DNA of 64,000 nt from NCBI GenBank assembly GCA_964644385.1, contig CAZXVJ010000006.1, positions 28,142-92,141 of the forward strand, read 5' to 3'. A program made the position numbers and the translations under genes. The stretch is from an uncultured Hyphomonas sp. GTDB taxonomy: Bacteria; Pseudomonadota; Alphaproteobacteria; Caulobacterales; Hyphomonadaceae. The notes under the pieces were generated by a model. It saw only the letters and a program-made list of their open reading frames with translations. It did no database searches and was not told the origin of the DNA. This document shows positions 10,847-62,598 of the stretch, piece after piece (the first letter of the stretch is position 1; each line of letters starts with the position of its first letter).

Positions 10847-11911
10847 ATGACAAACGCCCAAACCCGATACCGCATTGATGGCTATCTTCGTACCGATGAC
10901 GACCAACCCATCGCAACGCTCGAAATGACCAGCAAACCTAGCTTATCTGATTGGATAGATCTCAGGCCGCTCTGCTCTCCTGTTGAAGATCAGGGGCATG
11001 TCGGCTCATGCACCGCGAACGCCATTGTCGGTGCACTCGAATATCTGCAAATCGCCAGCGGCGGTCCATCTACGGATCTCTCGAGGTTGTTCGTCTACTA
11101 CAATGCCCGCAGGTTCTCAGATCGAGAGGGGGATGACTGCGGCGCCTCTATGGCGCACGCAATGGCATCGCTCCTCGCATTCGGGGCGTGCCCAGAATCG
11201 GTTTGGCCCTATGATGAGGCACGTTGGAGTAAAAAGCCGCCCGACGGCTGCTATCAGAGCGCCGTGCCTTTTGCAGGCCTGCACTATGCCAGCGTCGCCC
11301 CCAATGATGAGCGGAAATACGTCCTGGCTTCAGGCCTACCCATTATCTTTGGTATGGGTGTGCCGGAACATCTCTTGATGAACGTTGGCGCACAAACCGG
11401 CTACATGCCCGCCCCGGCAGACGGCAATTGGGAGCCCGCATCCAGCGGGCATGCAATGCTGATTGTTGGGTACAGCGACGCGAACAATGCATGGCTGGTT
11501 AGAAATTCATGGGGAACCGGTTTCGGTGAAGGCGGTCACGTTTGGATCGACTATGCGGTTATGGATCACTATGCGATCGGTGCGCAGGATTTTTGGACGG
11601 TCGGTCCGCTCGATCGGAACAAATTCTTCCGTCTTGCCGGTCCCAGTTCGCAATCTGTACAGCAACACGCCGTCCAGCACGCCACGCCGGCGACCCGCAA
11701 CTTTATGGATCAAGTCCGCAAACATCTTCGCCACGACCTCGAAACGCATCTCGACGCGACCCGTCAGGGCCTGCGCGATCGCCTTCGCGGTCCCGGAGTG
11801 GGCGGCGGATACGACAAAGGCCCCGGCGCGGGGGGCGGCTATGACAAAGGACCGGGCGTTGGCGGCGGATATGACCGCGGCCCCGGCGCAGGAGGTGGAT
11901 ACGATGACTAA
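10847..11911 (+). CDS. Papain-like cysteine peptidase (C1 family), copy 1. No signal peptide or prodomain, with 4x GPGxGGGYD(K/R) C-terminal repeats.
   Basis: DWIDLRPLCSPVEDQGHVGSCTANAI (papain mature N-terminus pattern DWR..VTPVKNQG.CGSCWAF; Q and C spaced 6 apart). HAMLIVGY (catalytic His). NSWGTGFGEGGHVWI (Asn plus Trp, compare NSWGTGWGENGYIRI). GGAGAG RBS 6 nt upstream of ATG 10847; GTG 10841 is an alternative start. Confidence 0.8.
   Translation: MTNAQTRYRIDGYLRTDDDQPIATLEMTSKPSLSDWIDLRPLCSPVEDQGHVGSCTANAIVGALEYLQIASGGPSTDLSRLFVYYNARRFSDREGDDCGASMAHAMASLLAFGACPESVWPYDEARWSKKPPDGCYQSAVPFAGLHYASVAPNDERKYVLASGLPIIFGMGVPEHLLMNVGAQTGYMPAPADGNWEPASSGHAMLIVGYSDANNAWLVRNSWGTGFGEGGHVWIDYAVMDHYAIGAQDFWTVGPLDRNKFFRLAGPSSQSVQQHAVQHATPATRNFMDQVRKHLRHDLETHLDATRQGLRDRLRGPGVGGGYDKGPGAGGGYDKGPGVGGGYDRGPGAGGGYDD
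11789..11908 (+). repeat. In-frame tandem repeat of four 30-nt units encoding GPG(V/A)GGGYD(K/R/D).
   Basis: Units ggtcccggagtgggcggcggatacgacaaa, ggccccggcgcggggggcggctatgacaaa, ggaccgggcgttggcggcggatatgaccgc, ggccccggcgcaggaggtggatacgatgac read directly from the sequence. Confidence 0.85.
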
Positions 11912-12911
11912 ACTAATTGACGGCGTCCTATTGGGCGGCTGGATTCCAGACGAGGTTGACGAGGCGATTCCAACACTCAAAACCGTAGCCGACATTCAAA
12001 CCCCGAACCTGGTCGACCTGAGGCCAAAATGCTCCCCGGTTGAAAATCAAGCGGCTGTCGGCTCCTGCGTCGCCAATGCTATCGTCGGCGCTCTCGAATA
12101 TCATCAGATCCGAAATGGCTCGACCATGAAAGATCTCTCCCGTCTCTTCGTTTATTACAATGCGCGCCGCCTCGGCGAGCGTATTGGCGAGGCAGGCACC
12201 ACCATTCAGCGGGCGATGGCCGCCATCCTCGGATGGGGCGCCTGCCCAGCTTCGATGTGGCCCTACCAAACCGCCATGGTAGATGAGCGTCCCAGCGAGG
12301 CTTGCTACAAAGCGGCGCAAATGTTCAAAGGCGTCCAGATTGCCCAAACCAGCTGGGGCGCTGGATGCCGTGAAGCGCTCGCCAACGGTTTGCCGGTTGC
12401 GTTCGGCATGAATGTCGCCATGCAAGACTTCAACAGCAATGGTCCGGCTGGCCAAACCGGCATGCTCAAGCCCCCATTGGACGGCAACTGGGCAGACCCA
12501 AGCGGCGGGCATGCCATGCTGATCGTGGGATATGACGACGCGCGCCACGCGTGGCTCGTGCGAAATTCATGGGGAGAGGCCTGGGGAGAAGGCGGGCACG
12601 TCTGGATCGACTATGATTATCTCAACCACTACATCGCATATGGACGCCGCGCCGCGCCATACGTGATTGGCCAAATTCAAGATATTCGAGCCTTTGAATT
12701 GAGCGGTGCCACAACAGAACAAGTTGTGGCGCAGGCTCTCTCGCGCGCGCCAGCGCAGGTTCAGAGCGAAATGGGCGCGCTCCGCCAACATCTTGCTTCA
12801 GACCTGGATTCAAGCCTCTCAGACGCCCGCAAAAGCATCCGCGATAGGCTACGTGGGCCGGGCGCAGGTGGCGGCTATGATAAAGGCCCTGGCGCGGGCG
12901 GAGGATATTAA
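11904..12911 (+). CDS. Papain-like cysteine peptidase (C1 family), copy 2, paralog of the upstream gene. 2x GPGAGGGYD repeats at the C-terminus.
   Basis: Internal Met 148 of ORF 11463..12911. Start overlaps the upstream stop by 8 nt. LVDLRPKCSPVENQAAVGSCVANAI, HAMLIVGY and NSWGEAWGEGGHVWIDY keep all catalytic residues. Tail motif LRDRLRGPGAGGGYDKGPGAGGGY is shared with copy 1. Confidence 0.8.
   Translation: MTKLIDGVLLGGWIPDEVDEAIPTLKTVADIQTPNLVDLRPKCSPVENQAAVGSCVANAIVGALEYHQIRNGSTMKDLSRLFVYYNARRLGERIGEAGTTIQRAMAAILGWGACPASMWPYQTAMVDERPSEACYKAAQMFKGVQIAQTSWGAGCREALANGLPVAFGMNVAMQDFNSNGPAGQTGMLKPPLDGNWADPSGGHAMLIVGYDDARHAWLVRNSWGEAWGEGGHVWIDYDYLNHYIAYGRRAAPYVIGQIQDIRAFELSGATTEQVVAQALSRAPAQVQSEMGALRQHLASDLDSSLSDARKSIRDRLRGPGAGGGYDKGPGAGGGY
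12854..12908 (+). repeat. In-frame tandem repeat of 1.8 units of the same 30-nt GPGAGGGYDK motif at the end of the second peptidase gene.
   Basis: gggccgggcgcaggtggcggctatgataaa then ggccctggcgcgggcggaggatat, followed directly by the stop codon. Confidence 0.85.
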
Positions 12912-13633: not shown

Positions 13634-14281
13634 ATGTTTGCGGTCATTAAGACAGGCGGTAAGCAGTATAAGGTTGCCGAAGGCGATCAAATCACTGTTG
13701 AGAAACTGGACGCCGAAGAAGGCAAGAGCATCACGTTTGATGATGTGCTTATGGTTGGATCTGGCGCAGACGTTACGATTGGCGCGCCTCTGGTGGCCGG
13801 TGCTAGTGTGACAGGCACGGTCGCCCAGCAGACCCGCGGCTCAAAAATCCTGATCCGCAAAAAGCGACAGCGTTCAACATACCGCCGCACCAAAGGCCAC
13901 CGTCAGCATCTGACCGTTGTCGATATTACAGGCATCTCTGCCAAGGGCGGCAAAAAAGCAGCCCCCGCCAAGAAAGCAGAAGCGGCTCCAAAAGCCGCTG
14001 AAGCGCCCAAGCCCGCCGCCAAGAAGGCTGACGTCAGCGCAATGGATGCGCGCGGACGCCTCGCTGGCCCGCAAGGCGAAGCAGATGATCTGAAGCTGAT
14101 CAAAGGCGTCGGCAAAGTGCTGGAAGGCAAGTTGAACGAAGCTGGCATCTACCACTTCTGGCAGGTCGCAGCGCTGAAAGGCGAACAGATCACTGAGCTT
14201 GAAGAAGAGATGAGCTTTCCAGGCCGCATCGAGCGAGATGACTGGGTAAGCCAAGCCGAAGAATTCGCAAAAGACGCGTAA
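13634..14281 (+). CDS. rplU: 50S ribosomal protein L21 with a ~110-aa C-terminal extension (Ala/Lys-rich linker plus an HhH-like module).
   Basis: [44 protein letters not shown] is canonical L21. The C-terminal extension is read directly from the ORF. Confidence 0.9.
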
Positions 14282-14320: not shown

Positions 14321-14590
14321 ATGGCTCATAAAAAATCAGGCGGCTCGACACGTAACGGTCGCGACTCAAACCCAAAATATCTTGGCGTCAAAAAGTATGG
14401 CGGCGAGCATGTCATCCCCGGCAACATTCTGGTTCGTCAACGCGGCACAAAGAACTGGCCTGGCAAAGGCGTTGGCATGGGCAAAGATCATACTTTGTTT
14501 GCGTTGATCGAGGGCAAGGTTGAATTCCGCAAAAAGCGCGACAACCGCCAATATGTACATGTTGTGCCGCTATCAGAAGCAGCAGAATAG
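14321..14590 (+). CDS. rpmA: 50S ribosomal protein L27.
   Basis: [40 protein letters not shown] is the L27 signature. AAGGAG RBS. Confidence 0.95.
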
Positions 14591-60598: not shown

Positions 60599-61531
60599 TT
60601 ATTTAGCCCCCTTTGCGCGCTTCGCCAGCAAACGCGCGGCATACTCTTTATCGACCTTGGCGCGCGGAGCGCCGCCAGCGATCATCTCTTTGCACTGACC
60701 GAGCCAGTCTTCACGGGCAGCCTTATCAGCGCGACCTACTTTTTCGAGAACAGAAGAACGGTCGGCATCTGAAAGGGCCACATAGCCCGTCAATGTTCCC
60801 GCACCGACCGCGCGAAGCTCTTTCGCGACCTTTGGACCAATGCCGTCTACCAGCTGAATATCATCTACGAAATTGTCTTTCGAGAACGGCGAAGCAGTGG
60901 TCAGCGTGCCATCGAAACGCGCCTTAATGCCCTCAGCGGCCTCCTTTGTGAGAACCAGCTGCTTACGGCGCAGGACGTCATAGACGTTGAGACCAATCAC
61001 GGGCAAAACATCAACGTTCGGAATGTTGCTGGCAGCCTTCGCCAAATTCTCGTCCACCGAAATACCAGAGATGAACAAAGCATTCTCAATACCAAGCGCC
61101 TTAAACTGAGCGGCCAACTCCTTCGTTTTCGGAGTCGCAAGCGCAGCCTCCTCAAGGACGATCACCGCGTCACTCTTCACCTTTGAAGAAATCGCGTGAG
61201 CAAGCGCCATCTTACGGATTTTTTTCGGAAGCGAATGCGCATGGCTACGAACACGAGGCCCGTGCGCGACAGCGCCGCCAACAAAGATAGGCGCATTCCG
61301 CGAGCCGTGACGCGCGCCGCCTGAACCTTTTTGACGAATAAACTTTTTGGTCGTGACCGACACCTCTGAACGCGACTGCGTTTTATGTGTGCCGGCCTGA
61401 CGCTTGGCCAATTGCCAGCGAACCGTACGGTGCAAAATATCGGCGCGAATGTCCTGGACACCAAATATCGCCTCATCAACGGCGATCTTTCCAGCGGCTT
61501 TACCCGCGAGAGTTTTGACTGCGAGTTCCAT
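60599..61531 (-). CDS. rplD: 50S ribosomal protein L4 with a ~100-aa C-terminal HhH-like extension.
   Basis: [39 protein letters not shown]4 core (~206 aa). Then the extra C-terminal domain ...[44 protein letters not shown]...EDWLGQ... Confidence 0.9.
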
Positions 61532-62598
61532 TATTCACCGCCCTCATTCAGCAGTTTCTTGAGCAGATCTTTGTCGACTTGAGCCTTCGGTTCTCCGCCT
61601 GCCAAAATATCTTTGGCCTGCCCGACCCAATCCTCAGACGCAGCCTTGTCTGTGACACCCAATTCCTCAAGCGCCGCAGCGCGGTCAGCATCGGAAGCCG
61701 AAACAAATGCCGACAAAGAGCCAAGCCCCTTTTCTTCAAGCCCCTCCTGAGCTTTCGGCCCAACACCATCAACAAGCTGGATAAGGTCAGCCGCACTGCC
61801 CTCAATCTTTGGCGCGTCAGATGCAGTAGGTGCGTCGGCTTTCGATTCAGATTTTGGGGCGGCCTTCTCAGGCGCCTTGAAGCTGCCTGCCTCTGGCGCG
61901 TCCGCATGGATCGTCTTTTTAACGGCGTCACGGACTTCGACGTAGCTGCCTTCATGTCCGGGTATGGCGCCCTTCACCAAAATGAGGCCGCGCTCAACAT
62001 CCGTTCGGACGATTTCAAGATTCTGGGTGGTGTCTCTTTTGGCGCCGTAGTGGCCGGCCATTTTTTTGCCTTTGAAGACCTTGCCTGGGTCCTGGCACTG
62101 GCCTGTTGAGCCGTGCGAGCGGTGGGAGATCGAGACGCCGTGGGTGGCGCGAAGACCCCCGAAATTCCAGCGCTTCATGGCCCCGGCAAAACCCTTACCG
62201 ATGGTCACGGCGGACACGTCTACCTTTTGACCCGGCACAAAGTGATCGGCCTGAACCGTCGCGCCAATTTCCGGCAATTCGCCAGAGACGCGGAATTCTT
62301 TCAACTTACGCTTCGGCTCAACGCCAGCCTTGGCAAATTGGCCGCGCATCGGCTTCGGCGTGCGCTTGGCCTTTTTGTTGCCAGCCCCAAGGATAACAGC
62401 AGTGTAGCCATCAGAGCGCGTAACTTCGCCGCCCTTCTTGGTTTTGACTTTACGCTCTTCCATGGTGCGCAGGCCAACGACCTGGCAATCATCAAGCGAC
62501 AGGACGGTGACGGGCACATGGCGCCCTTCATCGTCAAATATGCGCGTCATGCCCAGCTTACGGGTCAGCACGCCAGAACGGGGAGCTGGAAGCGCCAT
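61531..62598 (-). CDS. rplC: 50S ribosomal protein L3 with a ~130-aa C-terminal extension (Ala/Pro/Lys-rich linker plus HhH-like module).
   Basis: [17 protein letters not shown]...[24 protein letters not shown]3 core. Then ...[45 protein letters not shown]...EDWVGQAKD... Confidence 0.9.

Follow-up and report, generated by a model that had tools for sequence, protein, structure and literature searches.

The stretch of DNA analysed here, called the window throughout, comprises 64,000 nucleotides from an uncultured Hyphomonas sp. of the alphaproteobacterial family Hyphomonadaceae (contig CAZXVJ010000006.1, positions 28,142 to 92,141). It carries the genes rplU, rplC and rplD, whose products, the ribosomal proteins bL21, uL3 and uL4, all continue well past their conserved cores. 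In the original prediction the L21 core was described as being followed by a long extension whose final module also ends the products of rplC and rplD, and this description holds: the open reading frames (ORFs) are intact and the quoted tails occur verbatim in the sequence. Each of the three proteins consists of a normal ribosomal core, a low-complexity linker of 14-46 residues and an all-helical domain of about 68 residues of the helix-hairpin-helix (HhH) class, an anatomy that is well supported.

Extended ribosomal proteins of the window

The features are listed below in window coordinates, with residue ranges in amino acids (aa); A and B denote two subtypes of the module.

13634-14281, plus strand: rplU (bL21), intact ORF of 215 aa
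13634..13942, plus strand: rplU core (bL21, aa 1-103); Pfam PF00829 at residues 1-101, E 1.6e-38; TIGR00061 at 2-101
13943..14077, plus strand: bL21 linker (aa 104-148), 45 aa, rich in Ala, Pro and Lys, with PAKKA-like motifs; net charge +7, pI 10.3
14078..14281, plus strand: bL21 C-terminal HhH module of type A (aa 149-215) and stop codon; match to NF008916; net charge -8
61531-62598, minus strand: rplC (uL3), intact ORF of 355 aa
61930..62598, minus strand: rplC core (uL3, aa 1-223); TIGR03625 L3_bact at 9-223, E 3.5e-78
61792..61929, minus strand: uL3 linker (aa 224-269), 46 aa, rich in Ala, Pro, Lys and Ser, near neutral (net charge -1)
61588..61791, minus strand: uL3 HhH module of type B (aa 270-337); net charge -9
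61531..61587, minus strand: uL3 C-terminal helix (aa 338-355) and stop codon; 18 aa, net charge 0; the helix spans model residues 73-86
60599-61531, minus strand: rplD (uL4), intact ORF of 310 aa
60914..61531, minus strand: rplD core (uL4, aa 1-206); PF00573 at 16-204, E 1.5e-62; TIGR03953 at 17-203
60872..60913, minus strand: uL4 linker (aa 207-220), 14 aa; its ...ASPFSKDNF is kept in the L4-fusion loci
60668..60871, minus strand: uL4 HhH module of type B (aa 221-288); 121.3 bits with the module hidden Markov model (HMM); net charge -2
60599..60667, minus strand: uL4 basic C-terminal helix (aa 289-310) and stop codon; 22 aa, net charge +6; kept in 27 L4-fusion loci

The bounds of the uL3 core were taken from TIGR03625, as the Pfam Ribosomal_L3 model matches this protein only in part, with its best stretch at 117-199. 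Judging from their composition, the linkers of all three proteins are presumably disordered. Nothing follows the module of bL21, and the modules of uL3 and uL4 are each succeeded by a conserved C-terminal segment. A six-frame HMM scan of the window revealed no copies of the module beyond these three.

The extensions are shared by nearly all close homologues. Of the 120 best clusters taken for each protein, all L3 clusters (341-364 aa) and 119 L21 clusters (209-239 aa) contain the module. Complete genomes are represented among the module-bearing clusters, and the long L21 clusters include a RefSeq MULTISPECIES Hyphomonas entry that is present on 532 contigs; the L3 clusters bearing a taxonomic label belong to Henriciella, Hyphomonas or unclassified Alphaproteobacteria. 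These homologues place the source organism in Hyphomonadaceae or close to that family. Comparison of the uL3 and uL4 tails with related loci gives nonsynonymous divergence (dN) of 0.11-0.30, up to about twice that of the cores, with synonymous divergence (dS) saturated (>1.4 or undefined). Saturation of synonymous sites affects every pair compared, which leaves only dN itself and an upper bound on dN/dS as meaningful measures; low tail dN combined with saturated dS shows that the tails are translated and under purifying selection. An origin of the long ORFs in frameshift or read-through, which would make the extensions an artefact, is ruled out by the uninterrupted reading frames, the homologue clusters, the purifying selection and the match to a curated long L21 family, and we give this explanation practically no credence.

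Several long ribosomal protein homologues are deposited under unlikely taxa, namely the isopod Idotea baltica ('UNVERIFIED_CONTAM') and metagenome-assembled genomes (MAGs) labelled Saprospiraceae/Saprospirales or Porphyrobacter (P0392, L035, L050 and P0431 in all). These records probably represent contamination or mis-binned contigs of Hyphomonadaceae.

The three tails are mutually similar, as had been expected of a single module appended to three ribosomal proteins. The uL3 and uL4 tails share 47% identity over 96 aa (E 8e-31), the bL21 and uL3 tails 26% over 62 aa (E 2e-5), and the curated long-L21 model NF008915 also matches the tails of uL3 (E 7e-10) and uL4 (E 4e-6). A profile-profile alignment (hhalign) of 48 modules of the L21/NuoE type with 21 of the L3/L4 type spans 67 columns with 99.5% probability and E 2.6e-23. 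All three tails contain the hairpin motif h-x-x-h-x-G-h-G-x-x (pattern L[IV]xG[VI]G[PK]K), the canonical form being L-x-x-[IV]-x-G-[IV]-G-P-K with one such hairpin per domain. Across the 69-sequence module alignment G11, G13 and G24 are invariant; the features invariant in both subtypes are the hairpin G-x-G, the third glycine, and the W and Q of the penultimate helix (W..Q).

The common tail motif proposed for the three proteins is thus present in all of them, but not in a single form: the L21 copy reads GVGKV instead of GVGPK, and the L3 and L4 copies make up a separate subtype with an additional segment. We assign the L21 copy, from its sequence, to type A, the form that also ends long S2, NuoE, the phasin PhaH and Urf1/protein-O, and the L3 and L4 copies to a distinct type-B subfamily. 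The latter follows the pattern D-x-I-x-L-[VI]-D-G-I-G-P-K ... E-[ED]-W-[VL]-x-Q ... G-G-x-P-R-A-x-V-D-x-x-L. Its extra conserved C-terminal segment, AGGxPxAxVDKxxxxxLL, is predicted to be helical and is common to the L3, L4 and L15 tails; L21 does not have it.

The gene rplU is followed by rpmA (14321-14590), an ORF of 189 aa and then obg, which is the usual alphaproteobacterial context; the 189-aa product resembles a GNAT acetyltransferase by eye. rplC and rplD belong to the minus-strand S10 operon, and the remaining ribosomal proteins of the S10/spc/alpha cluster in the window have ordinary lengths. The stop codon of rplC and the start codon of rplD share one nucleotide (window 61529-61533, minus strand) despite the 130-aa extension of uL3, which indicates that the extension has been accommodated with the operon coupling left undisturbed. 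Elsewhere in the window, a 482-aa ORF at 11463-12911 (plus strand) contains, as read from its translation only, a segment resembling papain-type cysteine peptidases (VENQAAVGSCVANA), and the last part of its product is a GPGAGGGY(D)K motif in duplicate.

Fold and catalogued relatives of the module

The AlphaFold2 model of the uL3 tail, built from the 69-sequence alignment (pLDDT 92.2, pTM 0.80), is a six-helix bundle, counting helices of at least 4 residues, in which the last helix is the type-B C-terminal helix. A single-sequence prediction for full-length L21 reached a pLDDT of 41.7 and gave no usable model. The module model is compact, all-helical and superposable on solved HhH domains, and its nearest solved folds are all of this class: AF1548, the Rad51/RadA N-terminal domain, NusA-AR2 and the mitoribosomal protein mL85. 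In the Foldseek search RadA N-terminal domains head the list, on which the NusA-AR2/SuhB complex also appears (TM 0.56-0.72), and the best E is not under 0.18. Having HhH neighbours without a significant Foldseek E, the module is correctly called 'HhH-like' at the level of fold class, with no close solved structure. The closest comparators of its fold are the N-terminal (HhH)2 domain of Rad51/RadA, the C-terminal domain of AF1548 and the HhH elements of Pol X and of Y-family polymerases; the fold scores of NusA-AR2 are lower than those of the Rad51 N-terminal domain and AF1548, and the sequence relationship to NusA AR1/AR2 is not significant.

None of the curated HhH profiles reaches its threshold with the three tails. 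With HHH_5 the score is 17 bits (E 0.007-0.008), short of the cut-off of 27, with IMS_HHH the E is 0.05, and Pfam picks up, weakly, the first hairpin of the module alone; the similarity to HHH_5 suggested in the original prediction is real, but it is weak (E about 0.007) and lies under the Pfam threshold. Multi-copy relatives of the module do pass the cut-offs of HHH_5, Cdd1 and IMS_HHH, the generic models matched also including DUF4332 and TfoX_C. As these relatives match generic models alone, the module is without a dedicated Pfam family.

One of the three fusions is already catalogued. The window L21 scores 246.8 bits with NF008916 (cut-off 193), residues 1-213 of the protein aligning with positions 1-223 of the 223-position model, and it is a member of the long-form bL21 proteins (NF008916/NF008915, PRK12278 series), which have the same layout of core, linker and C-terminal module. 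The CDD title of PRK12278 is '50S ribosomal protein L21/unknown domain fusion protein'. The curated long models of S2, NuoE and PhaH end in the same domain: the L21 tail matches the C-termini of NuoE (NF009040, E 7e-24), as the original prediction had proposed, of S2 (NF008966, E 1e-22) and of PhaH (NF045508, E 1e-12), and the same three C-termini are matched by the tails of L3 (E 2e-7, 2e-3 and 1e-5, respectively) and L4 (E 9e-7, 2e-3 and 4e-4).

No NCBIfam model describes L3 or L4 with a module tail, and only the cores of these proteins are matched. The candidate 'sunset domain variant' of uL4 (NF051449) was rejected at 135.8 bits against a cut-off of 385, its match covering model positions 3-192 of 285, which is the L4 core. 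Membership in PhaH as a whole protein was likewise rejected (48.7 bits against 250), the tail matches being confined to positions 133-233 of that model. The appending of one module to three different ribosomal proteins, deemed unusual at the outset, is so only in part: the L3 and L4 fusions are without a dedicated model, but the L21 fusion and the long forms of S2 and NuoE are curated. A limited literature search returned nothing relevant on the L21, L3 or NuoE extensions. To our knowledge, and within the limits of that search, the fusions to L3, L4, L15 and L20, and the movement of one adaptor domain among ribosomal protein genes, have not been described before.

Within that limited search, PhaH is the sole member of the module family with a reported activity. 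A passage of a review (PMC13052382) places the N-terminus of Caulobacter crescentus PhaH on polyhydroxybutyrate (PHB) granules and states that its C-terminal HhH domain binds DNA non-specifically, spreading the granules along the nucleoid; the same passage credits the DNA binding to Salinas et al. 2023 (Mol Microbiol 120:307). PhaH resembles the proteins studied here in combining an N-terminal anchor to a large body with a homologous C-terminal HhH domain; it differs in that the anchor is a region binding PHB granules and not a ribosomal protein. Stand-alone homologues of the module are labelled by JGI 'predicted flap endonuclease-1-like 5' DNA nuclease' (COG3743-like).

Only two sequences of the PDB contain the module, Dinoroseobacter shibae protein-O and Rhodovulum sulfidophilum Urf1/protein-3h, both auxiliary to the reaction centre-light-harvesting 1 complex (RC-LH1; the entries compared were 8YY9 chain O and 9WQV chain a). 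In protein-O and Urf1 a membrane anchor at the N-terminus is joined to a compact C-terminal domain by a long flexible linker, which in Rdv. sulfidophilum Urf1 is rich in Ala and Pro. The module is invisible in one of the structures and cleaved off in the other, so there is no experimental structure of the domain; such behaviour would fit a unit held by a flexible tether. The authors of the D. shibae structure regard the protein-O domain as homologous to NuoE C-termini and call the function of these domains obscure (PMC12079452), and according to the authors of the Rdv. sulfidophilum structure the function of Urf1 is not known (PMC13066640). Long NuoE, long S2 and Urf1/protein-O carry the same type-A domain after an Ala/Pro-rich linker on differing hosts.

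Distribution and spread among ribosomal protein genes

The type-B module was scanned for in one genome per species, which gave 136 loci encoding it, 80 of which were kept for the analysis of hosts. Nearly all loci with an informative taxonomic label come from Hyphomonadaceae (Henriciella, Hyphomonas, Algimonas), from other Caulobacterales or from Parvularculaceae, and two of the labels seem to be due to mis-binning of contigs. Of the 80 loci, 68 have the module on L3. Among the 72 loci with a complete L4 C-terminus, 27 have it on L4, and the Henriciella-type L4 stops 7-8 residues past the core. In two loci L4 ends in an AKP-rich basic tail alone (L040:3264-3989, where it reads PAPKKAAPKKAAPKKAVPKAKK, and L007:465-1169), and in the Henriciella-like lineage basic AKP tails are seen on ribosomal proteins with or without the HhH domain.

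The second carrier of the type-B module is L15 (rplO, PF00828), which bears it in five loci of Caulobacterales/Parvularculaceae whose L4 has no tail (L070:2455-3255, L072:2479-3261, L076, L078 and L080, with contigs shared with the L3 loci L069, L073, L066 and L074). The presence of the extensions varies with lineage, in agreement with what had been surmised: the L3 fusion runs across Hyphomonadaceae and their relatives, and in some Caulobacterales/Parvularculaceae MAGs L15 takes the place of L4 as the additional host. A further fusion, to L20, is found in L081:2304-3000, where reading through two sequencing frameshifts yields a bL20 with a Lys-rich linker and a complete type-B module behind it; this contig has low GC and a coverage of 2.7x, and its thrS is also split.

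The relationships between these copies point to more than one episode of duplication. The L3 and L15 modules of the same contig, encoded about 9 kb apart, are 76-82% identical against a background of 52%, which suggests recent copying or gene conversion between ribosomal protein genes. The L3 and L4 modules share 53% identity within a locus and 49% between loci, compared with means of 75% among L3 orthologues and 66% among L4 orthologues, which argues for an old duplication followed by vertical descent. Type B has spread by duplication among ribosomal protein genes: L3 and L4 in the window, L3 and L15 in other Caulobacterales/Parvularculaceae genomes, and L20 on another contig.

The module is not restricted to ribosomal proteins. 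Type B also occurs as a stand-alone protein and fused to DUF2934 (PF11154). Among the latter are proteins of about 138 aa that combine DUF2934 with a type-B-like domain (P0153, P0157-P0164, P0168, P0170); JGI labels several of them 'large subunit ribosomal protein L21', apparently by annotation transfer through the common tail. The module-profile homologue search returned mostly fragments of at most 160 aa and hence provides examples of hosts, not an unbiased census; the examples are L3, L4, L20, L21, NuoE, DUF2934 proteins, stand-alone modules and small proteins with a transmembrane anchor (P0175, P0220). At E<=1e-3 the family as a whole numbers 24,577 representative clusters, of which 13,719 are retained at E<=1e-10. 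The top 150 matches of the exhaustive search of representatives are all multi-repeat proteins, which likewise precludes a census of hosts. Tandem-module proteins from public metagenomes (P0241-P0243 and others) hold up to 26 copies in about 3000 aa, in which Pfam sees generic HhH hairpins only; such proteins might be multivalent scaffolds. The size of the family and the tandem copies fit a generic adaptor domain.

The range of hosts bears on the suggestion that the module is a membrane or polar tether, by which ribosomes would be held close to the membrane or to a membrane complex. NuoE, Urf1/protein-O and the small proteins with an N-terminal transmembrane helix would all be in line with it, but in these hosts it is another part of the protein, and not the module, that contacts the membrane. 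The module itself is soluble and acidic, without amphipathic membrane-binding features, and PhaH and the ribosomal proteins are not membrane proteins. We consider tethering of this kind very improbable.

Candidate partners of the ribosome-borne module

What could these domains bind? Their charge is informative in this respect. The mean charge of the module core is -9.2 on L3 (n=120), -6.8 on L15 (n=5), -5.0 on L21 (n=119) and -2.7 on L4 (n=26). The flanks are often basic: the L21 linkers of 119 homologues, 40-70 aa long, have a mean charge of +5.3, and the C-terminal segments of L4 and L15 average +4 to +5, their C-terminal helices spanning +4 to +6. These basic flanks could supply electrostatic affinity for nucleic acid. 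The acidic modules argue against the binding of rRNA in cis and leave protein docking possible.

Extensions of ribosomal proteins commonly act by folding back on the ribosome, and a tail of this kind would bind rRNA or adjacent ribosomal proteins, serving assembly or a lineage-specific feature of the rRNA. The basic linker of L21 could indeed bind rRNA, and L3, L4, L15, L20 and L21 are mostly early assembly proteins of the 50S subunit. However, the same domain is found on non-ribosomal hosts (NuoE, PhaH, Urf1, membrane-anchored small proteins, DUF2934 proteins), and its patchy presence among close relatives, with L4 bearing it in some loci and L15 in others, is unlike that of an integrated structural element. 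In addition, rRNA should repel the acidic core, and the low-complexity linkers are tether-like, the equivalent linker and domain of Urf1 being unresolved or cleaved. Action in cis is therefore improbable in our estimation. The partners named in the original prediction, rRNA, mRNA or membrane, find no support in the acidic modules or in the characterised homologue PhaH, for which PMC13052382 reports DNA. DNA or protein is the more likely partner.

Another possibility is that the acidic module docks on a basic protein surface in the manner of the NusA acidic repeats, which would place the ribosome, complex I, RC-LH1 and PHB granules on a common protein hub. Candidates for the hub would be RNA polymerase alpha-CTD, on which NusA AR2 docks, a nucleoid-associated protein, a scaffold protein with many repeats or a further copy of the module. 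Module cores are acidic on all four of the ribosomal protein hosts for which charge was computed, strongly enough to recall the acidic HhH repeats of NusA; the NusA-AR2/SuhB complex is among the structural matches, the proteins with tandem copies could be the multivalent scaffolds, and all hosts are large assemblies. On the other hand, the one function on record for the family is the DNA binding of PhaH given in the review, the GhGxK hairpin, which is the element of HhH motifs that contacts the DNA backbone, is the most conserved feature of the module, and NusA-AR2 fits its fold less well than the Rad51 N-terminal domain and AF1548 do. The acidity of the core makes protein docking a serious alternative to DNA, if a less likely one.

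The partner that we tentatively favour is nucleoid DNA. The preference is based on the precedent of PhaH, on the conserved GhGxK hairpin and on basic flanks resembling the AKP tails of PhaM, PhaF and AlgP. These three proteins are nucleoid tethers of granules, and their tails are described as DNA-binding in PMC13052382; the likeness of the L21 linker to their histone-H1-like AKP/PAKKA tails is compositional only, and, unlike them, the L3 and L4 linkers of the window are not basic.

In the mechanism we propose, the cores would anchor bL21, uL3 and uL4 in the 50S subunit, and the linkers would let the HhH domains swing out on the solvent side, so that a 50S could bear as many as three arms. The arms would dock the ribosome to a partner common to other large assemblies, which by homology with PhaH would most likely be nucleoid DNA. 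The DNA would be contacted through the hairpin backbone and the conserved Lys, with help from the basic linker or the C-terminal flank. Ribosomes would in this way be kept near the chromosome by the same hitch that serves complex I, RC-LH1 and PHB granules. Projection of the module from the ribosome surface is plausible given the composition of the linkers and general knowledge of the ribosome, and the C-terminal globular parts of uL15 and bL20 are likewise on the solvent side of the 50S. That the ribosomes are docked to nucleoid DNA by these arms seems to us, by analogy with PhaH, quite possible, though short of probable.

Several points weigh against this reading. The position of the L3, L4 and L21 C-termini on the solvent face of the bacterial 50S is a matter of general knowledge and not taken from coordinates. 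Acidic cores, as found in the ribosomal protein modules, are atypical of proteins that bind DNA non-specifically; they are typical of HhH repeats that dock on proteins, NusA AR1/AR2 among them. The linker of uL3 is not basic. Finally, the DNA binding of PhaH goes back to one sentence of the review (PMC13052382), and the binder may be either the HhH core or a basic flank.

A broader form of the docking hypothesis would extend to the whole range of hosts. Ribosomes of Hyphomonadaceae and related Alphaproteobacteria would be attached to the nucleoid, or else to a hub that they share with other assemblies, through as many as three flexible HhH arms per 50S (on L21, L3 and L4, with L15 or L20 elsewhere, and S2 on the 30S), and the same adaptor would hitch complex I, RC-LH1 and PHB granules in a general modular system, the module being recopied between ribosomal protein genes. 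We regard this generalization as speculative and, taken as a whole, rather unlikely.

The position of ribosomes relative to the nucleoid is usually put down to passive exclusion. If the docking hypothesis is true, a tether built into ribosomal proteins would constitute an active and directly testable positioning mechanism. If, instead, the tails are no more than catalogued decorations of mild effect, there is little out of the ordinary in the finding, the L21 case being already curated. As the same domain is carried by complex I (NuoE), by auxiliary proteins of RC-LH1 and by a nucleoid-tethering phasin, the identification of one partner would explain several extensions at once. The repeated lineage-specific capture of the module by L3, L4, L15, L20, L21 and S2 is a clean example of domain shuffling in very conservative genes. 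The finding as a whole yields a concrete hypothesis, open to testing, on active tethering of ribosomes to the nucleoid and on what a very common orphan domain does.

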